NCBI GenBank assembly: GCA_015233335.1
Contig: JADFXX010000001.1
Location: 70,302 to 134,301 of the forward strand
Origin: Candidatus Omnitrophota bacterium
Lineage (GTDB): Bacteria; Omnitrophota; Gorgyraeia; Zapsychrales; Fredricksoniimonadaceae
Reading direction: 5' to 3'
DNA length: 64,000 nt
The notes beneath the pieces were generated by a model. It had not been told where the DNA came from. It saw nothing but the letters and a program-made list of their open reading frames with translations, and ran no database searches. Position numbers and translations under genes: made by a program. Below, in pieces: positions 2-25,010 of this stretch. The stretch's first letter is position 1; every line of letters starts with the position of its first letter.

Positions 2-331
2 GAACAAGAAGAGGTCCGTGAATCTTTAAAATCCATTCTGGCAGATCACTATGAACTGATTACAGTTGACTCCCCATCCATGGCTGTTGATATTTTGTCC
101 CACACCAAAGACATCAAAGTCATGCTTTTGAATATTCTTATGCCCCTCACCGAGGGACCGGACGACTTAAAGGAAATAAAAAAGAAATTCCCTCAGTTGA
201 GGGTGATTATGGTGGGCGGGCATAAATCAGCCCAAATCACTGTCCCAGGCGCAAACGGGCACATCGTTAAACCATTTAAACCACAAGAAATATTGGATCT
301 GCTTAAAAAGCACATAACTCCACTGCTCTAA
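2..331 (+). CDS. CheY-like response-regulator receiver protein, 5' end outside window
   Basis: Frame is open from nt 2 (EQEEVRESLKSILADHYELITVDSPSMAVDIL...), so the listed ORF 80..331 is only its Met-initiated tail. DIKVMLLNILMP...LRVIMVGGH...VKPFKPQEILDLL fits the C-terminal half of a receiver domain. Overlaps the stop of the convergent HD-GYP gene by 4 nt. Confidence 0.6.
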   Translation, partial: EQEEVRESLKSILADHYELITVDSPSMAVDILSHTKDIKVMLLNILMPLTEGPDDLKEIKKKFPQLRVIMVGGHKSAQITVPGANGHIVKPFKPQEILDLLKKHITPLL

Positions 332-1515
332 AGCTCGCCTTTATAAAAAAGCTCTACCAAAGCATCAACCGGCTTGCGGTCGAACTGTTTGTTAATCCCC
401 TGCTGGATTTCGAGAATGGCTTTATCCTTACTAAAACCTTTTCGATAGGGCCTGTCGGTAGTCATGGCATCAAAAGCATCTGCCACTGCGATAATAGCCG
501 CGATGATGGGAACGTCCGCTCCTTTGAGCCCCTCGGGATATCCTTTAGCGTCATAACGCTCATGATGATATTTAACGCCGCTGATGACCTCCTCAAAACC
601 TGTTAACGGCGCCAAAATCTCCGCTCCGCGGCTGGTATGGCTTTTCATGATCTCATATTCTTCAGGAGTCAATTTATCTTTTTTAGAAAGAATCGACTCC
701 GGTATGCCGATCTTGCCGATATCATGTAAAAGGCCGGCGATATATAAATTTTCAAAAAATTTATGCGGGAATTTATACGCTTGGGACGCCTCCATCTGGC
801 GTCCTATGGCCAAGGCGTACTTGGTCACCCGTTCGGTATGGCCATGCGTATAGGTGTCCTTGGCTTCTATAGCTGAACCTAAAGCAATAGTGGTCTGGAC
901 AAATAAATTACGGTTACGCTCTGCTTCCGTTCTTAGATCATCAAATAGCTGGGCATTACGAATAGCCATCGCCACATCGCTGGCCAAAGCCGAGAAAAAA
1001 TCAAGTTCTTCCTGGTCAAAACGGCTGCCGTCAATTCTTTCCCCAAGCAGCAAGACAGCTAAAAGTGTATGCTGATAATAAGCCGGCACACAGGCCACCG
1101 CATTTAGTTTTGGCAGCTGTTCACTGACGCTGTGCAAAAGCTGTTTGATCCCATTTCCGTTGGAAATGACACTTTCCCTCCAAAGCAGTTTGTTAATGTC
1201 TTCCACGACCAAGGCATTACGATTTTCAAAAATATATTTATATTCTCTTTTAATAAAAAGCCTGATCAAAGGATGCGTCTTGTTAAAACGGATCAAACCC
1301 TCGGGGATGCGTTCTCCCAATTGCCCTCGGGAAATAGATAAAACATAAATGTCTTTAACAGGGTCATAGAGGATCATTCCCGCATGCTGGATTTGTACTT
1401 TCTGGACGAGGGAGCGGACAATCAGCTTGATGAGCAGGCGGGGGTCGTGGATTAAGATCATCCCTTTGGCCGCAGACTCCAACTCACGCTTATAGTCGAT
1501 TTTTAAGGAAGACAT
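328..1515 (-). CDS. GAF-domain HD-GYP phosphodiesterase (c-di-GMP-type signalling)
   Basis: 395 aa. N-terminal GAF-like region. C-terminal HD-GYP motifs read directly: HTERV, LLHDIGKIGIP, HHERYDAKGYPEGL, ADAFDAMTTDRPYRKG. Confidence 0.9.
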   Translation of the reverse strand: MSSLKIDYKRELESAAKGMILIHDPRLLIKLIVRSLVQKVQIQHAGMILYDPVKDIYVLSISRGQLGERIPEGLIRFNKTHPLIRLFIKREYKYIFENRNALVVEDINKLLWRESVISNGNGIKQLLHSVSEQLPKLNAVACVPAYYQHTLLAVLLLGERIDGSRFDQEELDFFSALASDVAMAIRNAQLFDDLRTEAERNRNLFVQTTIALGSAIEAKDTYTHGHTERVTKYALAIGRQMEASQAYKFPHKFFENLYIAGLLHDIGKIGIPESILSKKDKLTPEEYEIMKSHTSRGAEILAPLTGFEEVISGVKYHHERYDAKGYPEGLKGADVPIIAAIIAVADAFDAMTTDRPYRKGFSKDKAILEIQQGINKQFDRKPVDALVELFYKGEL

Positions 1516-1516
1516 G

Positions 1517-1876
1517 TCAAACCATCAACTGTGCAAGAACAATTTTTTCAAGATCTTCTAAGATAAATGGTTTATGGATATAATCGATAGCTCCCAGTAA
1601 GCGCGCTTCATTGACCGTTTCTTCATCTTCGACACCGGAGACCATGATCACCTTGACCGAAGAGTTACCTTGACGCAGCTGGCGCAAAACTTCGATCCCT
1701 GTCATCTCCTCCATCTTCACATCCAGAAGGACTAAATCCGGGTGCTCTCGCTCGATGAGATCCAATGCCTGACGCCCGCCGGAAGCGACCAGAACTTCAA
1801 TTTGCCGTTTTTTAAAGAAATTCCGGGCAAATTCGCGGATGTCATTTTCATCATCAACAATTAATAATTTGGACAT
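1517..1876 (-). CDS. single-domain CheY-like response regulator
   Basis: 119 aa; KLLIVDDE...DLVLLDVKMEEMTG...KVIMVSG...IHKPF receiver signature. Stop is 1 nt from the HD-GYP start. Confidence 0.9.
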   Translation of the reverse strand: MSKLLIVDDENDIREFARNFFKKRQIEVLVASGGRQALDLIEREHPDLVLLDVKMEEMTGIEVLRQLRQGNSSVKVIMVSGVEDEETVNEARLLGAIDYIHKPFILEDLEKIVLAQLMV

Positions 1877-1897
1877 AATTTCAGTTTACCCAAAACA

Positions 1898-4048
1898 TCA
1901 CCCAATAGCAACAGGCAAAAATAATTTTATCTTCGTGCCCTGCATGAATTTCGAAACCATTTCCACGCGGCCGCCATGGTTCTCTTCCACTATTTTCTTG
2001 ATCACATAAAGGCCCAGTCCCGTCCCTCTTTTACTGGAAAGCTTGGTCGTAAAAAACGGTGTGAACAATTTATGCATATCCTCGTCTTTAACCCCCATGC
2101 CGTTATCTTCAAAAGCAATCTCCGCATAACCGTCTTGTTTAAAAACGCGCACCATCAGGGTGGGCCGGTAATCAGGCTCATTGCTCTCATTCTTCCTTTG
2201 CACCATGGCATCATAGCTGTTATCAATCAAATTAAAAAACACCTCCTGCAACTGGGTAAAATTGCCTTTCACTTTAGGGATCGTCATAGGATCATAATCA
2301 TGGACGACTTTAAGCAGATCTGATTTGATTTTGAACTGCGCCATTTCAAGGGCCGAATTAAATACGGACTGAATATCCACGGCAGAAAAACCCGCCTCAC
2401 CTTTACGCGTATATTTCAAAAGGCCCTGGACAATTTCCCCTCCCTGGACCACATTTTCCTGCACGCGGACAAAAGCCCGCTCCAACTCCGTCATCACATC
2501 CTTCATTTTGTCCGGCATCGGTTCATTCTGATTCAAATGAATGGTATCTAAAGCATCTCCGGCAATAAAGCCCAATGCATGAAATCTGTTATTGATCTGA
2601 TGGGACAGCCCATCCGCCATAGTCCCTATGGTAGCCATTTTTTCGGCCTGAAACAACTGTTGATGGGTCAGCCTTACATCCTCATAAAACTTGGCATTTT
2701 CAATAGCCAAAGCCGCCTGATTTGCCAAAATACTAAAAACAGCAAGATCATCTTCGGTATAAGACATGCCGGATTCTTTTTTACCCATAAAAATAATAGC
2801 AGTCAGGTTCTTATCGATAAAAATGGGGACGACCAATGCCCCTTCAAACGAAGCAATGATCTGTGTAATCTGGACCAGCAAAGGATCCTTGAGGTCCAAG
2901 GCTCTTTGTTTAAATTCCTCATAAACGATAAAACTTTTATTATTCAATAAGTACTCCAGCAAAGGAGAGCTTTTTGCAATCGTATCAATAAACTGGCCCT
3001 TCCCGGATTTTCTCTTGGATGCGCCCAAAACATACTCCTGACGAGCTTCGTCATAAATATAGATGAGCGCATGTTCGATTTGGATCGCTCGTATTAATAT
3101 ATAAACGATCATACCGCACAACTTATTCAAATCCTTGATCCTTCCCATACCGGCTGAAGCCCGTCTTAAAGTTGACTGATACCGCCGCTGCTCTTGTAAC
3201 AGGCGATCCTCTGCTCTTCTTTGAATATAAAGATAAGCAAAGGGGCCGAATGTGGCAAGAACAAGCATCGCCCATATGGCAACTTCCCACAGATGATACT
3301 TATACCCAAAAATAAAAGGGATCCCTAAAACAAAAGCATAAACGCCGATAAATATAGCCGTATTGGATACAACCAGCCGGACATCCATCAAGCGATATCT
3401 AAAAATGGCATAAGTAGCAAGCGCCCCATAAACACAAACAAGGATCTGGCCGTAAGGATAAATATTAAGGCCCCAGGCCGCCGGCGCCGTATTCATCCCG
3501 CCCCCGAAACCGAATATCATAGCAACAAATAAATACTTGGCCTGAATATTAGAAATCCCTTTAGAATTTTTAATATATTGATAAAGCTCATAGAAAGACT
3601 TGCCGACGATAACGCTCCAGATAAACATAAAAAAGTTGTATAAAAGATTCGTCCTGAAATAATAGATCTGATGAAATGAAAAAAAGACCCTGTCTCCGAA
3701 CATCCAATTTGTAAAAACGGTCAAAATAATAAATACCAAAGATTCAAAATATCCAAAGATCAAAAACCGGGAAGACTTTAAATTACAAAATATATAAATG
3801 ACATGATAATAAAACAGCGCGATCAGGATGATACCGACGGTAAACATCTTCCACCCCAAGAAAGCGGTATCATGGTCTGTGGTTGACCCGCTGACAAACA
3901 TGCTGAAACCCCAAAAAGAGATCGAATAATTGACATACGACCACACTTTATGGAGTTTATTCTTCCCAAAAAATGAAATGAGCAAAGCAAGGCCTAAGTT
4001 GATCAAACCAATGCAAAGCCCGGCTATTGAAAAATAATTATTGATCAT
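1898..4048 (-). CDS. polytopic membrane sensor histidine kinase with GAF domain
   Basis: 716 aa. About 280-aa N-terminal region with roughly 8 hydrophobic helices, then a GAF-like segment. H-box GLSHQINNRFHAL. HATPase boxes NLIDNSYDAM, DNGMGV, GTGLGLYV. The ATG (4048-4046) overlaps the PKS TGA (4047-4045) as ATGA. Confidence 0.9.
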   Translation of the reverse strand: MINNYFSIAGLCIGLINLGLALLISFFGKNKLHKVWSYVNYSISFWGFSMFVSGSTTDHDTAFLGWKMFTVGIILIALFYYHVIYIFCNLKSSRFLIFGYFESLVFIILTVFTNWMFGDRVFFSFHQIYYFRTNLLYNFFMFIWSVIVGKSFYELYQYIKNSKGISNIQAKYLFVAMIFGFGGGMNTAPAAWGLNIYPYGQILVCVYGALATYAIFRYRLMDVRLVVSNTAIFIGVYAFVLGIPFIFGYKYHLWEVAIWAMLVLATFGPFAYLYIQRRAEDRLLQEQRRYQSTLRRASAGMGRIKDLNKLCGMIVYILIRAIQIEHALIYIYDEARQEYVLGASKRKSGKGQFIDTIAKSSPLLEYLLNNKSFIVYEEFKQRALDLKDPLLVQITQIIASFEGALVVPIFIDKNLTAIIFMGKKESGMSYTEDDLAVFSILANQAALAIENAKFYEDVRLTHQQLFQAEKMATIGTMADGLSHQINNRFHALGFIAGDALDTIHLNQNEPMPDKMKDVMTELERAFVRVQENVVQGGEIVQGLLKYTRKGEAGFSAVDIQSVFNSALEMAQFKIKSDLLKVVHDYDPMTIPKVKGNFTQLQEVFFNLIDNSYDAMVQRKNESNEPDYRPTLMVRVFKQDGYAEIAFEDNGMGVKDEDMHKLFTPFFTTKLSSKRGTGLGLYVIKKIVEENHGGRVEMVSKFMQGTKIKLFLPVAIG

Positions 4049-7000
4049 TTTATCTTCCCGAGAATACGGTCCATCAAGTGCCGGGGGATATCCTCCCCGG
4101 ACGGGGCAAACAATCGGTCTCTTTTAACCCATAACAATGACTGCTGGGCCACTGCCAATTTTTTACCGTTGTCCAAGAAAATCTCAAAATTCAGGATCAA
4201 CCCTTGTGTATACACCCGGCCTAGATACATCTTCACCACAATACGGTCAAAAGGCATGGCTTCACCCAAATGGTCAATTTTAAACCTTCTGCAAATAAAA
4301 TCGTTTTTGATATCATTCGATAAATATAAATCCGGCCATATTTTATAAAAATAAGTATCCACCGTCCTGCCCACCCATATAGGATAATTAGCGAAATAAA
4401 TATTCCCCACTAAATTAGACTCCTCCAGGGTCGTTGGAATGTGCAATTCGCTTAAGAACAACTGACCGGTCTCATATTCTTTGATTAAATCTCCTAAACC
4501 AAAATGGTCGTTATCATAAAACCCTTTGAACGATTCATGATCAAACACCCCTGATCTTGGCTCCATTTTCTGCATCACATCCTTAAGAAAAGAAGGGAGC
4601 CTGTTCACCCTTGCCTGACCGTGGTCGAGGATCTTAACCCATGATATTCTTTGCAAAACTCTTGCCACTTCTTCGGCAGCGCCATCACCATTGTGCTTTA
4701 AAAAGTCAAAATACAGCTCATAGACATTATCGTTGATTTTATTCCCCAGCCAAACCCTGCCTTCGACGATATCTCCGGCGCTCAATTCTCCTTGAATATC
4801 TACGATCACATTATTGGTAGCAACGCCCCATTCTTTAGTTTCAACCACACCTGCTAATTGTTTTAAGACGGAAACAAGAGCGAATTCCCGTATTTCACCG
4901 ATCCACTCACAGTAGCTGCTAAAATTGACACGCCTGCCGGTTGATTTGCCATGCTTGAATACCACCGGAAATTTCTTAGCAGTCAATAATTTTCCCTGGG
5001 GGCCGGTATAATCCGCATGAAAATGAAAATACTGATCCTCGAACCCCAACTGTTTATTAAGCTCCTGTTCTTGATAAGCGCCCTGCCCCTTAAGCAAAAA
5101 GGTCAGCAATCTTTCGGCGCCCCGGGAAAATTTCACAACAAGACCGATGAATAAATCATCCCCATTTCTCAGGATATAATAATCATTTTTGGATATTTTC
5201 TCGAAGCGCAGGGCTTCTAATGACGCGCCTGGCGATGTTTTGATAAAAGTTTCGATACAAGTCCAAACAACGGTCCCTAAATAATCCCGGGAAGCCCCCT
5301 CACTATCCTTGATGATCGCGTATTTATCCCCTCCCAGCAAAGACAGCCATTCCTCGGAGGTCCTCGGAGAAATCGTTTGAATATCAATGCCATGCTCCTT
5401 TGGCCCCACGGAACACAGGATTAAATTGTGCTCATGGGTAACCGATAAATGGACCTCGGGCCCACCATCGGTTTCAGCCAGAGGTTTTCCATATTGGTCC
5501 CATTTAATCTCAAGCTTTATTGATTTTTCAAATTTTCTTAAATAATCCTGTACGACTTTGTTCAGAAAAGGCAATTCTTCCTGGTGCCTGTGCCCTTTAG
5601 ATATTTTTTCTAAATCGGGAATATACTGCAAAGCCGTCAGGGGAAATTTGACCCCCAATTCGCGCTCATATTTAGCTATCAAATCTTTGAGGATGATTTG
5701 ATCTCTTTGGCAAGGGTTGACAATGTCACCGGCCCGGGGATTATCGGGAAGGCTTTCGAGGATTTTTAAAACACAATTCTTAATTCTGACGGACTCATCA
5801 GCGCTGTTGACCGCCTGGGCATCCCCGCGATAATGTTCCATATCCGTACGTAATATTTCAGACAACACAAGTTTATGCTCTGCCGATCTTTGATGAGTTC
5901 CCACTTCTATTTCTTCAATATAATTCGGCAAACAAGCATCCTGGGACACGATCAATTGCATGGACTGCAAAACAGAATCGATGAAGAACGGATCACCGGT
6001 CAAGTATTTTGAAGATGAACCGTTAAAAACAGAGGTAAAAAGACATTCGCCTTTTTTCGTCTTCTCGTCATAGCAAAGCTCATGGATCCGGTCAATACGC
6101 TGAAAACTCTTGCCTTGAAACAAAATCGGCCCATACAGATCCCTTTGGGGAACAATATCCAGCACATTTGCGATTTTTCTTTCTTTACCGTTCTTCTTTG
6201 GTCGCACAGCTGTATCTTCAAGCTCAAACACAGCTGAAAAATGCGGTTTTCTGTATCCTGACTCTTGGGTATAGATCTCGACTTTAACGCTCAATACGTC
6301 ATCCTTTGAAACTTTTTCTAAAACCTGAGCATGAATTTCGATGGTAGCTCCGGTATCTTCAGAAACCGGGATCGGTCTTTTAAGTTCAATATTTCTTGCT
6401 TTGATATGATCCAAGCCCCGCAGCCCCAAAACCTGCACAACAGCCTGCGCCATAGCCTCCAGTCCAAAAACAAACGGAAAGAGCAAAGACCCCTTCCAAT
6501 TATGGTCCAATAAATAAGGGTCCTCTTTGACATTAAGGTGCGCCTGGGCGATCAATTCAACGCCAAGAAGGAAATATTTAATTTCCTCGATAAATCGAAA
6601 ATGATTAGCCTTAAAAGGTGCCATTTTCCAGGTTTCAAGTCCGGCTAATCTGGCACTCACAATAACCTGCTCAACACCCGGCTCAGTTTCTACCAATTGT
6701 CTAAAGCGCTTAACCCCCTCTGCAACAGATATCGATCCGATCCCTTTTTGGGCAAGGCGGCCAACACTGCCTAATTTGACCCCCATACCGACTTCATCCC
6801 AAATGCTATACGCCACCGAAACAACCTGTGTAGAGGGATGCCGCAATTTAAATTGATGAAGATATAAGTTTAAAATCTCATTAGACAGGCCATACCAACC
6901 GCTTGCCTCCATGCCGGTCAGGCCGATAATTGAGGTAATGCCAACGATCATTTTAGGCGGAGCATCCGACAGGGCACGACAAATATGAACAGCCCCCATC

Positions 7001-10000
7001 ACCTTAGGCAGCGATTCAACGAAAACATCGTTCACGCTTGACTGCTTGAGACGTTTTAGGCTGTTTAAACCTGCCCCATGAATGAATCCAGTGATCTGAC
7101 CCCGAGTTTCCCTGATCTGTTTAATGATGAGGGCAACACTATTTTCATCAGTCACATCACACTGATAATAGCTGGCCTTTAAATGTTCCCCTTCGAACTG
7201 TTTTAATGTCTGAACAATTTCATTACTTTCATCTTTATTGTCCTTAGGGCACGCTGAACGCCCGACCAATATCATCTGCGCTTGGGTAGTCCGGGCAAAT
7301 TCTAAAGCACATTGTGCGCTGACACCTTTGGCTCCCCCTGTGACTATAACGACATCCTGCGGCCCCCATGCGATACCGCGCTTTTTGTAATCTGCCGGCT
7401 GCGAAGTTTCATAATACGCCACTTTTCTGATCAGTTTCGAATCATAGGCAATCGCACTAAACCGCTCATAGGTTTGAAGTTCGTCCATAATGCTCGATGC
7501 AATTTCACTCTCAGAGGATTGAATATCGAAATCAATAACTCTCACCTTCAATTGCGGGCTCTCAAGAAGCAACGTTGATACCAAAGATTTAGCTGAGGAT
7601 GAAGCAATTCCGCCCCCCCATTGAACAACAACTATAAAAGTATCTGGGCTTAAGGGATGAGAATACACCAAACCGATCAGTTTATGCATTCTTTGGATGA
7701 TCTCTTTTAAAGAATTTTTGTCAAAATCACCTGATTGTCTTGGTCTGGGGAGGATCGTGATCAGGCAATCCATGGGCCCGGTGTTTGCGGTCTTATCATC
7801 GTAACAGATCTTTTGTGTTTTGATCTTCTGATCTTTAAACTCCCGGGTGATCCGATCAGCCAGAGGCTCATCCTCTTGTGAAAGGATTATCACCCGCTTT
7901 AATTCCTTAAGCTGATTAACGTTGCGGGTTTTGATCTCTTCCGGCTTAAAATCAAGGATGAAATTCCTGACCCATGTTTTCTCATGGTAACGTTTTAAGA
8001 TTTCGCCGACTGATTCTTCATAAGATCCTGCTTGGGCCAGAACAGCCAACTCGTTGAGCTGGTCCCTGATTTCTCCTAAAGTGTTATTGGAAAGCTTCGT
8101 GGGATCCGCTTGTCCTGCCACTCCAAGCAGACGTCCCGCCCGGGCAATAAGTTCTGCCGCCTTAATGGAATCCAAATTCAGGTCATCCAGCAGTCTTGAG
8201 TTCAAAGCAATCGATTCTTTATCAAAACCTGTGATCTGATGGGTCAGATCGATCAAAAGATCAGCGATGTTATCCTTACCTCTAACTTGAGCCGGCAGGC
8301 CTCCGGGTATGATTTCTGCCGTTGACTGAAGCGTCCCTGCGGTTTGCGGCAGCTTTCGTAAAAGTTCAGTTTTCAAAATTTGATCGGCGATTTTCAGCGG
8401 ATATTCACACTGGTTCTCGATGAATCTTTTTCTAGATGCTGGGACAAATGTTCTGATCAGCCTGTTTTTATATAGATCTTCCCATTGAACAGGAATATTA
8501 CGTACAAACAATTCAGCAAGTACAATATTTAAATCACGGTCATTATAGGCGCTCGATTCGACAGGCAGACAAAGGGGGCCTTGGCCTTTATTGATGGCAC
8601 GGACCAAGTCTGTCAGCACTCGTCCGGGGCCGACTTCGATTAAAACATCGCACTCTTGAGCAATAACCCCAACCAAACCGACAAAATCAACGGGCAAAAT
8701 CACCTGCTTAGAAAAGTATTCTTTAATATTGACTAAAGCGCCGATGACCGCGGAATTGATGCCTGAATAAAGCCTGATCCCATTGGGTTTAAAAATTTCA
8801 GGGAGGATCCGGCAGGACCGGATCTTTTTTGAGACCGGCACCATCAAAGGAGAATGAAACGCTCCCGAAACATTCAAACGATGGGTCGAAATATCCTGGG
8901 CTTGGGCGGACTTGATTATTTTCTCAATTTCTTGATTCCCTCCGGACACGATCACCTGATTTGGGCTATTGATATTAGCCAGAACAATGTTGCCTTTGAC
9001 CTTAAAGACAAGTTCTTCGGCTTTGAGTTTTGAACAAAATAAACTAACCATGCCGCCGCCCAATCGTCCTTGGGTTGCCATCAATGCTCCGCGCAGCTGG
9101 GCAAATTGAATAAGAGTTTGCCGATCAAAAGCGCCGGCTTTATAAAAGGCTGTTAATTCACCCAAACTGTGGCCGGCAACAAGATCAGGCTCTATATGAA
9201 GCCGGGACAAAAATTCCGTCCAAATCAGAGAACTTAGGACGATTGCCGGCTGAGTGATTTTGGTGTCCGATAGTTGTTTTTCAAATTCTTGGGTCGTCTC
9301 TTGGCCAAAGAACTGATCGACGGATTTATAGATACTCTCGGACAAGGGTAGTTTAGACAGCGCGAGCAAATCCCGTGCCCATCCAAAACGTTGAGTTAAA
9401 ACCCGGGTCATATTCAAACGCTGTGAACCCTGTCCGGGATATAAAAACCCTATCCGGCACCCCTTAACCGCGCGGCTTAAAAGGATCAGTGTTGCGGGAT
9501 CATTGGCTTTGACGGGATGAATTTGACCTTCATCCAGTGAGGCAGTGTTGATTGCCTCTTCGAGTAAAACCATAGCGTCATACAAATGTTCGGGTGAATC
9601 TGTGACAATAGCCGCCTTGACCGAAAAGCTGTTCTTGGCTTTCTTATTTAAAAACGCAGCCAAGTCCGCCATTTCAGCGATACTGATATTGCGCAGGTCT
9701 TCTTTGAATTTTGCGATAATTTTCTTAAGATGAGCAACGGTCCGGGAGGTAAAGACAAAAACCTCACTCTGCTGGGGACTGACAAATAATGCCCCCTCGT
9801 CGATCTTAGGTTTTATGGCTTCGAGGGGCTTGTCATAAGATTCAACAGCCACATGACAGTTGATCCCTCCGAATCCGGCCGATGATATCCCCGCCCTAAC
9901 GGACTTGGCTGGTGATAGTACCGCTCCTTGAATAAGCGGATACAAATTCTTGGCCTTATCTTTGAAAACATCATTAGGTTTTACACAGCTGGCCGTAGGA

Positions 10001-11442
10001 GGCAAAATACGCTGATTAACGGCTAATACAGCTTTGATAAGGCCTCCGATACCTGCGGCTGCCTTAGTATGGCCGACAATGGATTTAAAGGAAGTAATCC
10101 CGCATTTCTGCAATTTCTCAGTTCCTGCAGGTATACTTTGTTCTATGGCCAAAGCGATGCCCTCAAGCTCAACCCGATCTCCCTTGGTTGTTCCGGTGCC
10201 GTGACCTTCAACAAAATCAACCTCAGCGATCTTATACTTAAGGTCCTTATAGGCACGTTTGATGGCCAATGATTGACCGCTCGAAGACGGTTCCATGATC
10301 CCGCCTTTACCGTCAGATGAGATCCCCCAGCCTTTGATGAGGGCATAAATGTAATTTTTATCCCTGAGAGCATCCTCTAGTCTTTTTAAAAGCACAAAGC
10401 CGCATCCCTCGCCGGGCAGAAAGCCATTGGCCCCCTGGTCATAAACAGACATTTTATCCCGGGCCAGAGCGCCGGCTTTGGCGAATCCCACTAATTCAAA
10501 TGGGTCAAGGCTGATATCCACCCCTCCGGCTAAAGCCAGGTCCACATTCTTCATTTTTAAAGCATCGGCGGCCGTCGCGACAGCCAGCAAAGATGATGAA
10601 CAAGCGCCGTCGACGATATACCCGCCGCCCTTTAAATTTAAATAGTTACAGATACGCCCGGCGATCGTATTGGCCAGGCCTCCGGCCAGAGAGTCTTCTG
10701 TAATAGGATAAAATGCTGATTTATAGACCTGTTCCATTTCAAGGGCAATATTGTGGCGCTCCTCCAAACCCATGCCGCGCCTCGACAATGTTGCATTCAA
10801 TACTTTTTGAACATACGGCCAGCGCAAGCGCAGGGTTTGGGAGCGTGTCTGCTCACCGGTCAGGGTGTTACCGACGATGACGCAGGTGTTTAAAAGAGGA
10901 ATTTCATTGAATTTGTAACCCGCATTTTCAAAAGTCTTAAGCGCCACATCCAAAGCCAGCCAATGCGCGACATCCGTTGATTCAACGGTTTTGCGGGGGA
11001 TCCGCAGCCGGCCCCAATCAAATACAAAATTTTCTAAAAAGGCAGCTTTGGTCAGGTAGGTTTTGTCCGAGGCTTTAGCATCGGCATCGTAGTATTCGCT
11101 CAAAGGCAGTCTCTGGTCTAACATCCGGCGAAACTGAATGCGGCGGGCCAGAATATTTTCCCAAAGTTCCTTGATATTGGAGGCCCCCGGATAATAACAG
11201 GCAAGCCCGATCACAGCGATGTCAGAAGAACTAAGAGGCAATTCCCTGGCTGACGGACGAGAGATCCCCTTTTTCCCTAAGAAATCTTCAATGATCTTTT
11301 TATAAGCACCGGTAATTTTTTGGGCCTTTTTCCAGCGATAATAATTGACCGTATGGGTATCAATACTGCGGCACAGGCCGACAACAGACAATTTTGCCTG
11401 GACTCGAAACCTTTCTAATTCTTTGAATAATTGACGGCTCAT
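4045..11442 (-). CDS. iterative type I polyketide synthase, enediyne-PKS-like (HTH-like N-term / KS-AT-ACP-KR-DH-PPTase / tandem hot-dog thioesterase)
   Basis: 2,465 aa. Approximate domain spans in nt: HTH-like 11269-11442; KS 9832-11226 (DGACSSSL, HGTGT, GHTKAAAG); AT 8563-9453 (GHSLGE, GAFHS); ACP 8038-8280 (LNLDSIKAAE); KR 6643-7359 (VTGGAKGVS, YGLSN); DH 5743-6600 (HNWKGSLLFP, DSVLQ); Sfp-type PPTase 5083-5640 (YGKP, HGIDIQ, WTCIETFIK); 4HBT-like hot-dog repeats 4573-5040 and 4048-4515 (IYFANYPIWVGRTVD). Confidence 0.9.
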   Translation of the reverse strand: MSRQLFKELERFRVQAKLSVVGLCRSIDTHTVNYYRWKKAQKITGAYKKIIEDFLGKKGISRPSARELPLSSSDIAVIGLACYYPGASNIKELWENILARRIQFRRMLDQRLPLSEYYDADAKASDKTYLTKAAFLENFVFDWGRLRIPRKTVESTDVAHWLALDVALKTFENAGYKFNEIPLLNTCVIVGNTLTGEQTRSQTLRLRWPYVQKVLNATLSRRGMGLEERHNIALEMEQVYKSAFYPITEDSLAGGLANTIAGRICNYLNLKGGGYIVDGACSSSLLAVATAADALKMKNVDLALAGGVDISLDPFELVGFAKAGALARDKMSVYDQGANGFLPGEGCGFVLLKRLEDALRDKNYIYALIKGWGISSDGKGGIMEPSSSGQSLAIKRAYKDLKYKIAEVDFVEGHGTGTTKGDRVELEGIALAIEQSIPAGTEKLQKCGITSFKSIVGHTKAAAGIGGLIKAVLAVNQRILPPTASCVKPNDVFKDKAKNLYPLIQGAVLSPAKSVRAGISSAGFGGINCHVAVESYDKPLEAIKPKIDEGALFVSPQQSEVFVFTSRTVAHLKKIIAKFKEDLRNISIAEMADLAAFLNKKAKNSFSVKAAIVTDSPEHLYDAMVLLEEAINTASLDEGQIHPVKANDPATLILLSRAVKGCRIGFLYPGQGSQRLNMTRVLTQRFGWARDLLALSKLPLSESIYKSVDQFFGQETTQEFEKQLSDTKITQPAIVLSSLIWTEFLSRLHIEPDLVAGHSLGELTAFYKAGAFDRQTLIQFAQLRGALMATQGRLGGGMVSLFCSKLKAEELVFKVKGNIVLANINSPNQVIVSGGNQEIEKIIKSAQAQDISTHRLNVSGAFHSPLMVPVSKKIRSCRILPEIFKPNGIRLYSGINSAVIGALVNIKEYFSKQVILPVDFVGLVGVIAQECDVLIEVGPGRVLTDLVRAINKGQGPLCLPVESSAYNDRDLNIVLAELFVRNIPVQWEDLYKNRLIRTFVPASRKRFIENQCEYPLKIADQILKTELLRKLPQTAGTLQSTAEIIPGGLPAQVRGKDNIADLLIDLTHQITGFDKESIALNSRLLDDLNLDSIKAAELIARAGRLLGVAGQADPTKLSNNTLGEIRDQLNELAVLAQAGSYEESVGEILKRYHEKTWVRNFILDFKPEEIKTRNVNQLKELKRVIILSQEDEPLADRITREFKDQKIKTQKICYDDKTANTGPMDCLITILPRPRQSGDFDKNSLKEIIQRMHKLIGLVYSHPLSPDTFIVVVQWGGGIASSSAKSLVSTLLLESPQLKVRVIDFDIQSSESEIASSIMDELQTYERFSAIAYDSKLIRKVAYYETSQPADYKKRGIAWGPQDVVIVTGGAKGVSAQCALEFARTTQAQMILVGRSACPKDNKDESNEIVQTLKQFEGEHLKASYYQCDVTDENSVALIIKQIRETRGQITGFIHGAGLNSLKRLKQSSVNDVFVESLPKVMGAVHICRALSDAPPKMIVGITSIIGLTGMEASGWYGLSNEILNLYLHQFKLRHPSTQVVSVAYSIWDEVGMGVKLGSVGRLAQKGIGSISVAEGVKRFRQLVETEPGVEQVIVSARLAGLETWKMAPFKANHFRFIEEIKYFLLGVELIAQAHLNVKEDPYLLDHNWKGSLLFPFVFGLEAMAQAVVQVLGLRGLDHIKARNIELKRPIPVSEDTGATIEIHAQVLEKVSKDDVLSVKVEIYTQESGYRKPHFSAVFELEDTAVRPKKNGKERKIANVLDIVPQRDLYGPILFQGKSFQRIDRIHELCYDEKTKKGECLFTSVFNGSSSKYLTGDPFFIDSVLQSMQLIVSQDACLPNYIEEIEVGTHQRSAEHKLVLSEILRTDMEHYRGDAQAVNSADESVRIKNCVLKILESLPDNPRAGDIVNPCQRDQIILKDLIAKYERELGVKFPLTALQYIPDLEKISKGHRHQEELPFLNKVVQDYLRKFEKSIKLEIKWDQYGKPLAETDGGPEVHLSVTHEHNLILCSVGPKEHGIDIQTISPRTSEEWLSLLGGDKYAIIKDSEGASRDYLGTVVWTCIETFIKTSPGASLEALRFEKISKNDYYILRNGDDLFIGLVVKFSRGAERLLTFLLKGQGAYQEQELNKQLGFEDQYFHFHADYTGPQGKLLTAKKFPVVFKHGKSTGRRVNFSSYCEWIGEIREFALVSVLKQLAGVVETKEWGVATNNVIVDIQGELSAGDIVEGRVWLGNKINDNVYELYFDFLKHNGDGAAEEVARVLQRISWVKILDHGQARVNRLPSFLKDVMQKMEPRSGVFDHESFKGFYDNDHFGLGDLIKEYETGQLFLSELHIPTTLEESNLVGNIYFANYPIWVGRTVDTYFYKIWPDLYLSNDIKNDFICRRFKIDHLGEAMPFDRIVVKMYLGRVYTQGLILNFEIFLDNGKKLAVAQQSLLWVKRDRLFAPSGEDIPRHLMDRILGKIK

Positions 11443-11463: not shown

Positions 11464-11487
11464 ACAATTGTTACATATAACAATTGT
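11464..11487. promoter_or_regulatory. operator-like palindrome ACAATTGTTACATATAACAATTGT
   Basis: 22 of 24 positions are self-complementary. Contains two copies of the ACAATTGT core. Lies 22-45 nt upstream of the PKS start codon and overlaps the putative -10 element. Confidence 0.45.
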
Positions 11488-11510
11488 AACAAACAGTAAA
11501 CGGCAGTCAA
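11483..11510 (-). promoter_or_regulatory. putative sigma70-type promoter of the PKS operon
   Basis: The minus strand reads TTGACT (11510-11505), a 16-nt spacer, then TACAAT (11488-11483), about 40 nt upstream of the ATG at 11442. Confidence 0.45.
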
Positions 11511-11616: not shown

Positions 11617-14600
11617 GTGAGTGTAATGAACGTCCCCATATCCCCTATTCCATCATTGCGAAGACCATTTTTTATACATTGGTTATCTCCTGTCATTTTA
11701 TCGGCTTTTCTTGTCAATTCAATCGGCCCAATGCCGGCCTATGGGCAAACAGATGAACTCAAGCTTCCTCTTGCGGGGGTCATGGTACGTTTAAGCCCGC
11801 CGCTTGATCCTCCCATGCTTAAAGGCATCAAGGTTTATCCTGATAACCCGTTTAGATTTGATTTTATCCTTGACCGGGGAGAAAACGAATTGTCGAGTGA
11901 CGCCCTTAAAGACGAATCCGGCAAACTCATTAAATATTTCCTTTCTTCGTTGACCATTCCAGAAAAAGACCTTTGGGTCAACCTCTCTCCTTATGAGAAA
12001 GAACGTATCATCCCCAACAGCTTTGGCTTAACCCAAATGGGCAGAGATCTATTAGCACAGGATTATGTCCTTAAGCAAATTACAGCCTCTTTAATTTATC
12101 CTGAAGATATTATTGGAAAGAATTTCTGGAAGCGTGTTTATGAAGAGGCCGCTAAACGTTACGGATCAACGGATATTCCTGTCAACACATTCAACAAGGT
12201 CTGGATCGTGCCTGATAAGGCCGTTGTCTATGAGAATGCGAAAGCGGGCACGGCCTATGTGATTGAAAGCAAATTAAAGGTCATGCTTGATCAGGATTAT
12301 CTATCCTTGGAGAAAAGCCAAACGCCAACCAGGGGACATTTGCCCGAAGGGCATGTGTCCCCAAGCCGCTTGCCAACCAATGAAGGGTTGCAGCTGAAAG
12401 CAACCCAGGTTAACAACCAATCGACAAGCAACTTGCCAGCCAAAGAAGGGTTGCAATTGAAAGCACCCCAGGGAAACAACGCTGCGACAAGCGAAGATAT
12501 CAACTCCCTCGGCTCACAGATCATCCGCGAAATCGTAATCCCCCAACTCACTCGTGAGGTTAATGAAAATAAAAATTTTACCAAACTTCGACAGGCCTAC
12601 AACAGCCTTATTCTAGCCACATGGTACAAGAAAAAAATAAAGGACAGCATCCTCTCACAGGTTTATACCGATAAAAATAGGATCGCGGGCATCACGGTGG
12701 ATGATCCTCAAGAGAAAGAAAAGATTTACCAGCGCTATTTACAGGCATTTAAGAAAGGCGTTTATAACTACATCAAAGAAGAAGTCGATCCTCTAACGCA
12801 GCAAATCATACCAAGAAAGTACTTCTCCGGCGGTATAAGCGGGACTAATTTAAGTTTAAATGTTTTCAGGACAACTTCTCAGAAACCGGATACCGCCATG
12901 CTCGCACTGCGCCGTGCAAAGGTCATTCAAATCGTTTTAAGGCTCCCAAGCACCTTAAAGCAGCTGATCACCGGTAGCAATCTTAAGGGAAAGGTCAAAG
13001 AAGTTTTTGGGGAAGACATTGATGCGTTAAGACAATTAGGTTTTCGTGATTCAGAATTAACACAAGCCTTAAGCGGCGACATGTCAGGACAATGGCGCTT
13101 TGGCGTTCCCTTTGATTTAACAGCATCTGAAGAAAACACCATAAGGCAGGAGTTTATCAATATGATCAACAGCAGGTCCCAAGACCCCTACAAAGAAATC
13201 GTTCTCTATGCTGTAGGCTTGGGCGTCGAGCCCAAAGAGGCTTTGGATGTAATCAAATTATTCTACAAGGTATTAAGCGATTCCGGGTTAAATCCACAGG
13301 ACTGGCATTTGACTTTTATCGGTATTGATAAATCCCCTGACATTGTGAACAATGCCAATGATCAATTATCCGCATACAGGAGAGCTTCGGGACTTTCTGA
13401 AGACAATCTTTATACGGCAGCCGTTGAAGCCAATGCTCTTTCGCCTGACGCATTGCAGGAAATCTTCAAGAATCAGGGCCGCGGCAAAAAGGCAGACATT
13501 GTTCTTAATAGACATACCCATTACGGAAATCTGCTCAATCAGCTAAGGCACTTCACTTTCGATGCCATCAGAGAGCACGATCATTATCGCAAGCAGGCTT
13601 TGAACGTATTTTTACAAATTAAAAATATCTTCACAGCATTGACAAGGCCGTCCTGTTTATACGTCACTGACGAAGGAGAAAACGCATTGATCATTCCCGG
13701 CGCAAAAATGGAAGGAAAATCCGGCGGCATGTACAGAGTTGTTGAGCCGACTAAAAACTTTTCACTGCATGACCTTTTTAAAGATTTAGCCATGCAGGCG
13801 AAAAACCCAAGTAAAGTTATAAATGTCATCACAGGCGCAGAAAAAGGAGATACCAGTGTCCTCTTGGGAATGGTTGCCGATGAATTACAAATCAGGGGCA
13901 TGGAAGGAACAGTAGCTCTGATCGGTCTTGGAAACACTCCTTGGCCGTTTTTAGAAACAGCTGAAATATTTCCAAAGGCCAAGGTCCTAGGCATTGACGA
14001 AGAAGAAAACTTGGTCAGCTTTCAGAATAAAAACCTGGAAGCTTATCCCGAACTGTTAAAAAATGAACGGGTTTCCATAAAAAGAGGTGATGCAACTGAT
14101 CTAAGTAAGACCGAGGGAGGGCGGATTTCGATCGCGGATCAAACTGTTGGATTTGTCTATTTTCAAAACGTATTCGATCTATATATCCAAAGCCCCGAAA
14201 ATATTCTGAAAATGCTCAGAGAGGCCATACGCGTTTTAAAGCCGGGTGGTTATTTGTACGTTGATGACGGGGCTGGAACATTAAATAGAAGTAAAGAATG
14301 GTTTAAGAGTGATCCTGAAAAATTAAGAATAATCAAAACCATCGAGAACGAGTTAAAAGATAAAATGAAAGATCTTAATCTGGCGGACTCGGTATCCTGG
14401 ATATACCAAAAGAACGATCGGGCGATGATCAATAAACCCGTTAAAAAAACTCCCAATCTAACACGTGCCCAGGCAGAAAAAGCGATCGGCTCACAGCTGC
14501 TTGATAAAATCAAAAGACAATATGGCAATACAGCTCCTTTGTCAGTTGTTGTTGAATCAACGCCGGATAGTGTTGTGATCGGAATTGAAGATCAGGGAAG

Positions 14601-15249
14601 AAAGATTTTCTCGGCAGCTTTCTCTGACAGCCAAAACTGGGGCCCTCAAAGTCATGGACAGACCCATGTTATTAACGAAAAAACCTTAACAAGCTATATC
14701 AAGCCCCCCACAGAGCAAAACTTACTTTATCTGCACTCGATACAGACGAATTATACCCTGTCGGAAAGCGGATTAGGCCGGCAAATCGTAGCTAATTTAT
14801 TAAAATTTTATGGGGAGAACAACGGATATACCCAAATGTCTTTAATACCTGACACTGATAATGACCAATGGATCATCACAAGCCGGGACGGTCAGGTCAT
14901 AGAGAGCCACTATAATGATGATTTAGACAGGATGCCCATTAAACCACAACCTATCACAAGCGCCGTACGTACAATAAACAATTTAAAAGGAGTGTCTATA
15001 AGCCAAAAGGCTTCCAAACAATATACGGCAGTGACCAATGCTCAAAACGGTGGTATTGACCTAACCCCCGCCAAAATGAATTTACAGACTCAAACGGATT
15101 CACGTTTCCCCGGTAATGATATGGGGATCAAATTCAACATTGACCCTGTCATGCTTGAAGAATTACGCAATGCCCCGGGCTTTGTTGCCCTCATCATCAA
15201 TATCCAGCCGCTTAACAGTCTTGGCGAGTTCTTAGGAGATAAAAATTAA
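11617..15249 (+). CDS. large orphan protein with N-terminal signal/anchor, conserved unknown N-domain, class I SAM-methyltransferase-fold region(s) and unknown C-terminal module
   Basis: 1,210 aa. GTG at 11617; an ATG at 11626 with AAAGGTG upstream is a likelier start. Hydrophobic N-terminus HWLSPVILSAFLVNSIGPMPAYG. Methyltransferase-like segment VLGIDEEENLV...IKRGDATDL...LREAIRVLKPGGYLYVDD. A weaker second Rossmann-like segment LYAVGLGVEP...FIGIDKSPDIV. C-terminal GGIDLTPAKMNLQTQ...APGFVALIINIQPLNSL. Confidence 0.6.
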   Translation: MSVMNVPISPIPSLRRPFFIHWLSPVILSAFLVNSIGPMPAYGQTDELKLPLAGVMVRLSPPLDPPMLKGIKVYPDNPFRFDFILDRGENELSSDALKDESGKLIKYFLSSLTIPEKDLWVNLSPYEKERIIPNSFGLTQMGRDLLAQDYVLKQITASLIYPEDIIGKNFWKRVYEEAAKRYGSTDIPVNTFNKVWIVPDKAVVYENAKAGTAYVIESKLKVMLDQDYLSLEKSQTPTRGHLPEGHVSPSRLPTNEGLQLKATQVNNQSTSNLPAKEGLQLKAPQGNNAATSEDINSLGSQIIREIVIPQLTREVNENKNFTKLRQAYNSLILATWYKKKIKDSILSQVYTDKNRIAGITVDDPQEKEKIYQRYLQAFKKGVYNYIKEEVDPLTQQIIPRKYFSGGISGTNLSLNVFRTTSQKPDTAMLALRRAKVIQIVLRLPSTLKQLITGSNLKGKVKEVFGEDIDALRQLGFRDSELTQALSGDMSGQWRFGVPFDLTASEENTIRQEFINMINSRSQDPYKEIVLYAVGLGVEPKEALDVIKLFYKVLSDSGLNPQDWHLTFIGIDKSPDIVNNANDQLSAYRRASGLSEDNLYTAAVEANALSPDALQEIFKNQGRGKKADIVLNRHTHYGNLLNQLRHFTFDAIREHDHYRKQALNVFLQIKNIFTALTRPSCLYVTDEGENALIIPGAKMEGKSGGMYRVVEPTKNFSLHDLFKDLAMQAKNPSKVINVITGAEKGDTSVLLGMVADELQIRGMEGTVALIGLGNTPWPFLETAEIFPKAKVLGIDEEENLVSFQNKNLEAYPELLKNERVSIKRGDATDLSKTEGGRISIADQTVGFVYFQNVFDLYIQSPENILKMLREAIRVLKPGGYLYVDDGAGTLNRSKEWFKSDPEKLRIIKTIENELKDKMKDLNLADSVSWIYQKNDRAMINKPVKKTPNLTRAQAEKAIGSQLLDKIKRQYGNTAPLSVVVESTPDSVVIGIEDQGRKIFSAAFSDSQNWGPQSHGQTHVINEKTLTSYIKPPTEQNLLYLHSIQTNYTLSESGLGRQIVANLLKFYGENNGYTQMSLIPDTDNDQWIITSRDGQVIESHYNDDLDRMPIKPQPITSAVRTINNLKGVSISQKASKQYTAVTNAQNGGIDLTPAKMNLQTQTDSRFPGNDMGIKFNIDPVMLEELRNAPGFVALIINIQPLNSLGEFLGDKN
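12369..12492 (+). repeat. in-frame tandem duplication, 63-nt period, 2 copies
   Basis: CTTGCCAACCAATGAAGGGTTGCAGCTGAAAGCAACCCAGG... (12369-12429) against CTTGCCAGCCAAAGAAGGGTTGCAATTGAAAGCACCCCAGG... (12432-12492), roughly 80% identical. Encodes LPTNEGLQLKATQVNNQSTS / LPAKEGLQLKAPQGNNAATS. Confidence 0.85.
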
Positions 15250-21334: not shown

Positions 21335-21742
21335 ATGTTTGTATATAAAACCCAAATCCGCCTGCACGATACGGACGCCGCCGGCATCATTTTCTTTGCC
21401 AATCAATTTAAGCTCATTCATGATGCTTACGAACAATTGATGGAAAAATCCGGATGGAGCTTTCAAAGAATATTCAAAGCAGGCCTCTTTTTCCTGCCTG
21501 TCGTGCACGCGGAATCTGATTTCAAAGCTCCTTTGTTCACAGGGGATAAGATTGCGGTCACGATCAAGGTAGGGCATATTGGGAACACTTCATTTGTCCT
21601 TGAATACATGCTCAAGCGTTCAAAAAAACTAATTGGAACTGCAAAGACCGTGCATGTCGCCATCAACCCCAAAACCCGCAAAAAAATCCCTTTGCCGTCT
21701 TATTTAATCCGTATTTTAGAAAAATATCAGAATGAGCGTTGA
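21335..21742 (+). CDS. 4HBT-family hot-dog acyl-CoA thioesterase (candidate DHNA-CoA hydrolase)
   Basis: 135 aa; IRLHDTDAAGIIFFANQFKLIHDAYEQLM is a typical YbgC/4HBT N-terminus. Converges on and overlaps menE by 16 nt. The DHNA-CoA hydrolase role is inferred from men context only. Confidence 0.65.
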   Translation: MFVYKTQIRLHDTDAAGIIFFANQFKLIHDAYEQLMEKSGWSFQRIFKAGLFFLPVVHAESDFKAPLFTGDKIAVTIKVGHIGNTSFVLEYMLKRSKKLIGTAKTVHVAINPKTRKKIPLPSYLIRILEKYQNER

Positions 21743-24146: not shown

Positions 24147-25009
24147 CCTATGGAAAACAATACACTATAAACCAAAAGGTACCGGCCCGTCAAAACCAAA
24201 ACCCGGTTGAGACTAACGGCCTGCGCATGTGTCATGACCTCATGAATACAAGGAATAGCCAGAAATCCGGTCAAAGAAGCCACTGCCACTCCTTGATGGT
24301 CATTAGTAATCAAAACTACGGCAAAGGGTATTAAACTGGCCGCAATGATACAAAAAAGGTATTCCTTCATGGCAAAAGAGCGGCCAAAACGCACGGCCAG
24401 TGTTAATTTGCGGGCCTCCCTGTCAGTCTCAATGTCGCGTAAATTATTGACAGCTAAGATAGCCGTTGATAAGAAACCCGGAGCAAGACCTGAAACGATG
24501 ACCGCCCAGTCGACCTCCAAAGACTGAACAAAATAGGTCCCTCCTACCGCCACAGGCCCGAAAAAAATCAGCACAAATAAATCTCCCAGCCCTAAATATC
24601 CTAAAGGCCGCGGTCCCGCCGTATAAAGGATCCCGGAAAGAATGGACGCCGCCGCGATAATAAGGATACACATGCCTGCACGATGGACTAAATAAAGGGA
24701 GGATAAAGCGGCCAATACGAAAAAAAACAGGGATGCCAGCAGAACCGTTCGCGGCCTGATCAAGCCCGACTGAGTCACACGCCGCGGGCCCAGCCGAAGA
24801 GCCGTGTCTGCTCCTTTTTTAAAATCAAAATAATCGTTAGATAAATTAGTCCCGATCTGAATAGACAAAGCAGCTGATAAGGCCATCAGGGCCGAGGGGC
24901 CGTGAAAAAGGCCATTGCCAAAAGCCATGGCTGAACCTATGAAAACAGGAGCGACGGCCGCGGGCAAGGTATTAGGACGAATGGCTAAAAACCATGATGA
25001 AAATTTCAT
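24125..25009 (-). CDS. menA: 1,4-dihydroxy-2-naphthoate polyprenyltransferase
   Basis: UbiA-family polytopic protein with NDYFDFKKGAD and NNLRDIETD motifs. Start moved to the ATG at 25009 (MKFSSWFLAIRP), 1 nt after the menB stop. Confidence 0.85.
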   Translation of the reverse strand: MKFSSWFLAIRPNTLPAAVAPVFIGSAMAFGNGLFHGPSALMALSAALSIQIGTNLSNDYFDFKKGADTALRLGPRRVTQSGLIRPRTVLLASLFFFVLAALSSLYLVHRAGMCILIIAAASILSGILYTAGPRPLGYLGLGDLFVLIFFGPVAVGGTYFVQSLEVDWAVIVSGLAPGFLSTAILAVNNLRDIETDREARKLTLAVRFGRSFAMKEYLFCIIAASLIPFAVVLITNDHQGVAVASLTGFLAIPCIHEVMTHAQAVSLNRVLVLTGRYLLVYSVLFSIGWLLCSH

Positions 25010-25010
25010 A

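Follow-up and report, generated by a model that had tools for sequence, protein, structure and literature searches.

Does a polyketide synthase (PKS) with the domain order of an enediyne synthase have to make an enediyne when it is encoded outside the actinomycetes and has signalling genes for neighbours? We addressed this question for a single large PKS gene on the reverse strand of a 64,000-nucleotide stretch of DNA from a Candidatus Omnitrophota bacterium (contig JADFXX010000001.1, positions 70,302 to 134,301; henceforth the window, with positions counted from its first nucleotide). An earlier reading of this stretch, made from the sequence alone and without database searches (henceforth the sequence-only reading), had taken the gene for a PksE-like iterative PKS with an integrated phosphopantetheinyl transferase (PPTase) and a fused, duplicated hot-dog thioesterase, and had expected a free polyene or hydrocarbon rather than an enediyne as its product. 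We found that the encoded protein (henceforth the query) is probably a self-contained, iterative, highly reducing type I PKS of the PKSE (enediyne-synthase) lineage, which would prime itself and release a linear polyene in cis by means of its own hot-dog domains. The query belongs to a large uncharacterised family that is spread over many phyla.

Domain organisation and kinship with enediyne synthases

The open reading frame (ORF) has the extent given in the sequence-only reading, and every motif listed there was found at its stated residue (see Table 1). An identical protein in NCBI comes from a Candidatus Omnitrophica metagenome-assembled genome, in line with the non-actinomycete host that had been suspected, and is annotated there merely as "SDR family NAD(P)-dependent oxidoreductase". 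A Pfam scan of the 2,465-residue protein matched the ketosynthase (KS), acyltransferase (AT), acyl carrier protein (ACP), ketoreductase (KR), dehydratase (DH) and hot-dog domains, with domain E-values far under chance level (Table 1), and detected neither an enoylreductase (ER) nor a methyltransferase domain. Profile scans for these domains had been proposed as a check of the sequence-only reading; they agreed with it for all of them, and the PPTase, for which they did not, is discussed below. The AT matched the FabD model (1e-45), with the AT of DynE8 among its top solved-structure matches, and carries the GAFH motif, which by established motif rules denotes a malonyl-type AT. The second-best solved-structure match of the ACP was the ACP of CalE8. 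The DSIK motif of this domain occurs once in the query and one to four times in other members of the family.

We then compared the query with known enediyne synthases. Residues 73-2094 aligned with residues 2-1902 of SgcE in one colinear BLASTP block (32.7% identity, 895 bits) that included the PPTase region, and identity reached 49.7% in the KS. What the query has in common with SgcE, CalE8 and DynE8 is extensive: the domain order KS-AT-ACP-KR-DH-PPTase in a colinear stretch of about 1,900 residues (~33% identity, ~50% in the KS), the lack of ER and methyltransferase domains, and the family of the thioesterase, which in those systems is a discrete protein (SgcE10, CalE7 and DynE7, respectively). 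By contrast, the query carries its thioesterase in cis, as a fused and duplicated double hot-dog, an extra helix-turn-helix (HTH)-like domain stands at the N-terminus, the neighbours are signalling genes, the E2-E5 cassette was not found, and the host belongs to the Omnitrophota rather than to the actinomycetes. The ACP motif also differs, being LNLDSIK in the query and LHMSSI in SgcE; that of CalE8 has been named HMSSI (PMC3107222).

The same kinship emerged when the KS-AT region was searched by tblastn against 72,556 plasmids and the 892 plasmid-borne PKS records were ranked. The best match was a cyanobacterial member of the query's own family (Gloeothece PCC 7822, 48.9% identity). The next ~40 matches were type I PKSs of Streptomyces or Nonomuraea (39-40% identity), several of which adjoin "enediyne biosynthesis protein" genes where their neighbours are annotated, and the remaining PKSs sampled across the ranking had at most 29% identity. 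The search also recovered SgcE on SGLP1, the plasmid of the C-1027 producer, with cassette genes alongside. Furthermore, we built a KS tree by a fast distance method (neighbour-joining, 463 columns, 200 bootstraps) from a sample consisting of the family, three actinomycete enediyne synthases, two further type I PKSs (an iterative one and a member of a nonribosomal peptide synthetase-PKS cluster) and FabF. The family and the three enediyne synthases were joined at 100% bootstrap, apart from both other PKSs and FabF; inside this group, the actinomycete enediyne synthases were monophyletic at 100% and the fused family at 63.5%. The sequence-only reading had hinged on the KS falling with PksE and not with PfaA or fatty acid synthases: the tree bears out the grouping with enediyne synthases and the separation from FabF, while PfaA was compared through NCBIfam scores alone. 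Taken together, the Pfam matches, the colinearity with SgcE and the KS tree support the proposed PksE-like reading and, as judged from sequence, membership of the enzyme in the PKSE lineage.

The PPTase domain was assessed with a 16-member family profile, which matched Sfp with an E-value of 1.7e-5 and AcpS weakly. The equivalents of Sfp residues H90, D107, E151 and K155 (H2003, D2020, E2064 and K2068 in the query) are kept in 108-113 of 113 homologues, and a precomputed Pfam ACPS match is present on one homologue (P0088). These comparisons point to an integrated Sfp-type PPTase with its catalytic residues.

A double hot-dog thioesterase fused to the synthase

Residues 2095-2465 of the query have no counterpart in SgcE and form a C-terminal extension that is common to 119 of the 120 closest database proteins. 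The C-terminal fragment by itself matched Pfam 4HBT_2 at 36 bits in two stretches, as the sequence-only reading had anticipated, and the two repeats are mutually homologous (hhalign probability of 99.3%, E-value of 2e-20). Repeat profiles scored 87 bits (repeat 2) and 45 bits (repeat 1) on SgcE10, taken from SGLP1, the same plasmid as SgcE, and phmmer aligned repeat 2 with CalE7 at 1e-9. When a profile of the whole tail family was used, the best solved structures were DynE7, CalE7 and the SgcE10-type "ACP-polyene thioesterase" (E-values of 1.4e-25 to 3e-25), with the next non-enediyne 4HBT protein at 0.014. By this measure both hot-dog halves appear to belong to the CalE7/DynE7/SgcE10 subfamily, and the claim that the thioesterase partner is fused in cis and duplicated is confirmed. 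The query departs from the subfamily in one trait: its members are discrete proteins of ~150 residues, whereas the query has the domain in two copies as part of the PKS chain. We found no description of a fused double thioesterase in the literature searched.

The AlphaFold2 (AF2) model of residues 1925-2465 had a predicted local distance difference test (pLDDT) score of 82.8, and its tail resembled double hot-dog acyl-ACP thioesterases (Foldseek E-value of 4e-13, target-normalised template modelling score of 0.70-0.75 over ~300 columns). The two repeats together are thus predicted to make up a double hot-dog, and through the duplication a single chain would build the dimer for which discrete hot-dog enzymes need two chains. 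Plant FatA/FatB enzymes and bacterial acyl-ACP thioesterases likewise have two tandem hot-dog halves per chain, which act on an ACP-bound acyl chain. However, identity between them and the tail is just 8-14%, the tail has no Pfam Acyl-ACP_TE match and its halves are of the CalE7/SgcE10 type, meaning that the match is best read as a predicted resemblance of fold only.

Conserved polar residues are found in both halves: Tyr2177, Arg2185 and Glu2186 in repeat 1 (Arg2185 and Glu2186 being present in 110 of 113 homologues), and Asn2343, Tyr2353 and Asp2362 in repeat 2. Kotaka et al. are said to have reported in 2009 that the catalytic residues of CalE7 are Asn19, Tyr29 and Arg37. At the equivalent positions, repeat 2 has Asn2343 and Tyr2353 together with Val2361, which we take to stand at the site of Arg37, and repeat 1 has Tyr2177 and Arg2185 without the Asn.

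Missing cassette genes and a proposed route to a linear polyene

If the enzyme served an enediyne pathway, one might look for the genes that abut SgcE on SGLP1, namely two encoding DUF1702 proteins, one encoding a CRTAC1-like protein and one encoding a membrane protein (SgcE5) that is annotated as Rnf subunit D and is presumably UnbU-like. No homologue of SgcE2-E5 was found by tblastn in the 64-kb window, and none of E2-E5 within +/-10 kb in 80 related loci of many phyla, many of them from Desulfobacterota, so that the absence of other warhead-cassette genes noted in the sequence-only reading extends from the window to its relatives. In the closest syntenic relative (L014; handles of this kind denote our related loci, and coordinates given with them are positions in those loci), the operon is followed by housekeeping glycine-cleavage genes. 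Because E2-E5 homologues were not found, the product is not expected to become an enediyne. We consider this non-enediyne reading well supported, and a linear polyene would be the likeliest product.

The domain content suggests how such a polyene might be made. The PPTase domain would, by homology, prime Ser1092 of the single ACP, and the malonyl-type AT, the KS, the KR and the DH would each act in every cycle; given that there is no ER and no methyltransferase, a linear conjugated polyene would build up on the ACP. The C-terminal hot-dog pair, acting as an intramolecular double hot-dog, would then hydrolyse the thioester in cis, and, by analogy, release could be accompanied by decarboxylation to a polyene hydrocarbon or ketone. 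We infer this chemistry, like any chain length, from related enzymes.

Several observations weigh against this proposal. Pfam ACPS had no match above threshold on the query, and the equivalent of Sfp Glu109 is Gln2022, at a position that varies across the family; self-priming could therefore be weak. The position of repeat 2 that we take to be equivalent to Arg37 is occupied by Arg in 70 of 113 homologues but by Val2361 in the query. The KS tree held no PfaA sequence, and the comparison with PfaA rests on NCBIfam scores. The window shows only about 4 kb downstream of the PKS gene. Chain length and release chemistry are beyond what sequence can tell, and the literature gives no product for any member of the family (PMC10308959; bioRxiv 10.1101/2022.10.12.511943).

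A conserved signalling operon and a putative self-regulatory domain

The PKS gene is the first of four same-strand genes, being followed by those for a histidine kinase with HisKA_7TM and GAF domains, a stand-alone receiver (REC) protein and a GAF-HD-GYP protein that is predicted to be a cyclic di-GMP (c-di-GMP) phosphodiesterase (Table 1). The REC gene starts 21 bases after the kinase gene and the GAF-HD-GYP gene 1 base after the REC gene. In 13 Omnitrophota-type loci a homologous kinase follows the PKS within ~30 nucleotides (counted up to its first ATG), and in five Desulfobacterota loci the distance is 15-110 nucleotides; a 7TM-type kinase adjoins the PKS in 30 of the 80 loci overall. REC and HD-GYP proteins are conserved at 60-89% identity in five Omnitrophota-type loci (L008, L013, L014, L015 and L020; 62-89% for the HD-GYP orthologues). 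Desulfobulbaceae-type loci encode, past the PKS, a 7TM-GAF hybrid kinase and then a REC-HD-GYP protein, and their PKSs carry an N-terminal PilZ domain (E-value of 3.7e-7) and a C-terminal amine-oxidase/phytoene-desaturase-like domain (precomputed Pfam). In Desulfobacterales the hybrid kinase is encoded directly 5' of the PKS. Altogether, a kinase-REC-HD-GYP set stands next to the PKS in Omnitrophota and Desulfobacterota (window positions 328-4048, the five loci just named, L027, L041 and L062). Cyanobacterial and Thermoactinomycetaceae members have no kinase; they have either halogenases and exporters or no identifiable recurrent neighbour. Gene order and spacing suggest that in this Omnitrophota lineage the PKS is co-transcribed with the 7TM-GAF kinase, to which it is probably also translationally coupled.

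A gene for a FadL/TodX-type outer-membrane channel for hydrophobic compounds lies directly 5' of the PKS in several Omnitrophota relatives (L004, 6410-7720; L005/L006, 8570-9865; L013, 2556-3896). Together with the fused amine-oxidase/phytoene-desaturase-like domain it hints at a hydrophobic product. As it is absent from the window, we did not count the channel as part of the query locus.

The N-terminal 58 residues of the query are conserved in 35 of its 120 closest homologues. The AF2 model of this segment consists of four helices (pLDDT of 79.5), and almost all of the 50 matches listed by Foldseek are Cro/C1-type HTH proteins (e.g., HipB, SinR and 434 Cro), with probabilities of 0.5-0.97 and weak E-values of 0.16-1.1; Pfam returned HTH matches to this segment below threshold only. 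Desulfobacterota homologues have PilZ where the query has the HTH-like domain. Upstream of the gene, ~40 nucleotides 5' of the ATG, we detected the best sigma-70-like match in 12 kb, a promoter-like site overlapped by an inverted repeat (Table 1). In L005/L006 (~9957-9982) and L013 (~3963-3990), the same repeat is found no more than ~45 nucleotides from the start codons of HTH-bearing homologues, i.e., GTTACA-N(5-16)-TGTAAC precedes HTH-bearing PKS genes in three genomes, window included. Since the GTTACA...TGTAAC pattern occurs at six distinct places in 1.58 Mb, we regard the repeat as a candidate operator, and the PKS may bind it through its own HTH-like domain.

Considering the kinase/REC/HD-GYP operon, the HTH-like domain and the promoter repeat together, polyene synthesis is probably tied to a c-di-GMP signalling circuit; the adjacency of the genes is observed, and the function and regulatory logic are what we infer from it. 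Control of a PKS by a second messenger or by itself was not found described in the literature searched. At the left edge of the window there is also a convergent receiver-domain ORF (80-331, forward strand), and at the position matching that of this ORF L005, L008 and L013 encode further 7TM kinases and a receiver on the opposite strand.

Table 1 Features of the PKS gene, its operon and its promoter region in the window
Feature	Position	Strand	Characteristics and evidence
Whole PKS gene	4045..11442	-	2,465 residues, ATG start; HTH-KS-AT-ACP-KR-DH-PPTase-hot-dog-hot-dog; ORF list and translation
N-terminal ~58-residue domain, residues 1-58	11269..11442	-	predicted four-helix, Cro/C1 (XRE)-like HTH fold; model
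KS, residues 73-540	9823..11226	-	Cys281, His414, His458; DGACSSS at 278 (Cys281), HGTGT at 414, GHTKAAAG at 457; Pfam ketoacyl-synt 2e-52, Ketoacyl-synt_C
AT, residues 663-952	8587..9456	-	Ser759; GHSLGE at 757, GAFHS at 860 (GAFH motif); Pfam Acyl_transf_1 2e-23
Single ACP, residues 1062-1125	8068..8259	-	Ser1092 in LNLDSIK; LDSI at 1090, one copy; Pfam PP-binding 4e-6
KR, residues 1365-1549	6796..7350	-	TGGAKGVS at 1368, YGLSN at 1517 (Tyr1517); Pfam KR 1e-21; colinear with SgcE KR
PKS-type DH, residues 1630-1897	5752..6555	-	His1647, Asp1822; HNWKGSLLFP at 1647, DSVLQ at 1822; Pfam PKS_DH_N and PS-DH; aligned with SgcE DH
Putative Sfp-type PPTase, residues ~1950-2117	5092..5595	-	YGKP at 1984, HGIDIQ at 2017, WTCIETFIK at 2060; colinear with SgcE PPTase; family profile against Sfp
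Hot-dog repeat 1, residues ~2145-2300	4543..5010	-	Pfam 4HBT_2; SgcE10 tblastn match at 4633-4929
Hot-dog repeat 2, residues ~2325-2455	4078..4470	-	half nearest to CalE7/DynE7/SgcE10; SgcE10 tblastn match at 4144-4449
HisKA_7TM-GAF histidine kinase	1898..4048	-	start overlaps PKS stop by 4 bases; Pfam and NCBIfam
Stand-alone REC protein	1517..1876	-	Pfam Response_reg 8e-31; same position in L008, L013, L014, L015, L020
GAF-HD-GYP protein, predicted c-di-GMP phosphodiesterase	328..1515	-	Pfam HD_5 2.5e-35, GAF; NosR-family c-di-GMP phosphodiesterase model 7.5e-34
Promoter-like site	11470..11510	-	-35 TTGACT, TG-extended -10 TACAAT; overlapped by GTTACA-N9-TGTAAC (11470-11490)

Alternative explanations

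The properties of the query can be explained in other ways. One is that the protein is a PfaA-like "secondary lipid" synthase, i.e., that it supplies membrane lipids with a fatty acyl chain that is polyunsaturated or unusual in some other way and that the thioesterase frees as an acid. The two have a related KS-AT region, and on the NCBIfam PfaA model TIGR02813 the query reached 505.8 bits over KS and AT, slightly above the 457 bits of SgcE, although both scores are about half of the cut-off of 1010.1. The DSIK-type ACP motif is another common feature (LNLDSIK resembles the motif of polyunsaturated fatty acid (PUFA) synthases), tandem ACPs are a trait of PUFA synthases that recurs in other members of the query's family (one to four copies), and the fold of the tail resembles that of fatty acyl-ACP thioesterases. 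By contrast, the ACP of the query is single, its DH is of the PKS type, it lacks an ER domain, its PPTase and thioesterase are integrated, and no partner of the PfaB/C/D type (ER, FabA-type DH) was found among the annotated neighbours in the window or the recurrent neighbour families of the 80 loci. Since, in addition, pairwise similarity and the KS tree favour the enediyne PKS lineage, and the tail is kin specifically to enediyne thioesterases and not to Pfam Acyl-ACP_TE, we consider a PfaA-like lipid synthase very unlikely. Two candidate PfaA references were discarded in the course of this comparison, a Fulvitalea protein that turned out to be a Pks2-like iterative PKS and a Vibrio plasmid match that turned out to be a modular PKS. 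The text of the pfa-like cluster classification by Shulse and Allen contains no mention of enediynes or thioesterases.

At the other extreme, the query might belong to a genuine enediyne or polyyne pathway with tailoring genes that are located at another place in the genome or are of a kind not yet known. Its KS, architecture and type of thioesterase are indeed those of enediyne synthases, the Joint Genome Institute (JGI) annotation names several homologues "enediyne polyketide synthase", and our analysis of this genome covered the 64-kb window. Yet E2-E5 directly abut the PKS in the C-1027 cluster on SGLP1 (the single bona fide cluster compared), which neither the window nor the +/-10 kb surroundings in the 80 family loci reproduce, and in the closest relative with flanking sequence it is the glycine-cleavage genes that come after the operon; this makes a complete enediyne pathway extremely unlikely. 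Finally, the operon could be a signalling circuit built on a polyketide, and not a route to a pigment or an antibiotic: the polyene would be a membrane-soluble ligand or chromophore of the kinase, the kinase would tune c-di-GMP through REC and HD-GYP, and the PKS itself would be regulated, by PilZ binding c-di-GMP in Desulfobacterota and by the HTH-like domain binding its own promoter in Omnitrophota. This would refine the proposal of an in-cis polyene synthase without contradicting it, and it draws on the tight, same-strand junction of PKS and kinase that is conserved in two phyla (with a 4-base overlap of stop and start in the window), on the HD-GYP gene kept beside the operon, on the PilZ domain fused to homologous PKSs and on the pairing of the HTH-like domain with a conserved inverted repeat in the promoter. 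However, the adjacency of genes cannot tell what senses what, the cyanobacterial and Thermoactinomycetaceae members lack the kinase, the E-values of the HTH fold matches are weak, and we know of no ligand for HisKA_7TM domains. As a joint claim, we therefore hold the signalling circuit to be unlikely, and the self-contained synthase that releases a linear polyene in cis to be the probable explanation.

Distribution of the family and implications

The sequence-only reading had considered a self-contained PKS of this kind unusual outside the actinomycetes. This did not hold: in a scan of 185,579 species-representative genomes, the PPTase-TE-TE tail (TE: thioesterase, i.e., one hot-dog repeat) was encoded in at least 242 species representatives across many phyla. 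These include Omnitrophota, Planctomycetota, Desulfobacterota (with the cultured Desulfosarcina variabilis), Cyanobacteria (Microcystis, Prochloron, Okeania and Microcoleus), Thermoactinomycetaceae, Methylococcales and Acidobacteriota. The hot-dog didomain matched 467 of 1.84 billion cluster representatives and was located at or near the protein C-terminus in nearly all of the best 150 of these 467 matches.

Cryptic cyanobacterial clusters known as "PksE-like" (Microcystis PCC 7806 and Gloeothece PCC 7822, the latter with the 48.9% identity given above) belong to the same family as the query, and the loci of Microcystis, Prochloron and Okeania encode the same PPTase-TE-TE tail. They differ from the query in that the synthase is often divided between two genes, one for KS-AT and one for ACP to TE, in that the HTH-like domain is missing, and in that FAD-dependent halogenases, an alpha/beta hydrolase and exporters replace the kinase, REC and HD-GYP genes. 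Specifically, up to three FAD-dependent halogenases, an alpha/beta hydrolase and ABC/HlyD exporters are encoded in L002 (11953-26394, on a Gloeothece PCC 7822 plasmid) and in L054-L056 (Microcystis). The halogenases beside these members suggest a halogenated polyene. A PksE-like gene with three halogenases is on record for Microcystis (PMC2442094).

Non-actinobacterial "enediyne-like" KS clades have been described from metagenomes without an assigned product (PMC10308959; bioRxiv 10.1101/2022.10.12.511943), and sediment Deltaproteobacteria have been proposed as a new source of enediynes (PMC10308959). KS-based genome-mining tools and KEGG-style annotation label genes of this kind "enediyne"; if the KS clades of PMC10308959 belong to the present PKS family, such calls probably mark another product, most likely a polyene. 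For biotechnology, no known route to a conjugated polyene or a C15-type hydrocarbon would be simpler than one self-priming and self-releasing gene. The mixture of enediyne-synthase and PUFA-synthase traits in the family may reveal the origin of the enediyne synthase and of its separate thioesterase. The recurrent association with a 7TM kinase, HD-GYP and PilZ and the HTH-like domain on the megasynthase suggest second-messenger control or self-control of a PKS.

Other genes in the window

On the other side of the PKS gene, a divergent ORF (11617-15249, forward strand) encodes 1,210 residues, among which the only recognisable domain is a class I methyltransferase domain (residues ~770-900). It was rejected as a partner of the PKS because none of the 80 loci has a homologue of it close to the PKS. 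An ORF encoding 727 residues (28440-30623, reverse strand) had no Pfam match. The men genes and FabF, which lie farther on in the window, were set aside as ordinary primary metabolism; the menaquinone-type run (21727-25832, reverse strand) encodes a MenE-like AMP ligase, a MenC-like o-succinylbenzoate synthase, a UbiA/MenA prenyltransferase and a MenB-like enoyl-CoA hydratase. Located 5' of this run are genes for a peroxiredoxin, an Fe/Mn superoxide dismutase, a ribonucleotide reductase and a ferrochelatase. The sequence-only reading had also called the genome anaerobe-like, but with a superoxide dismutase and a peroxiredoxin encoded in the window, nothing here indicates a strict anaerobe.

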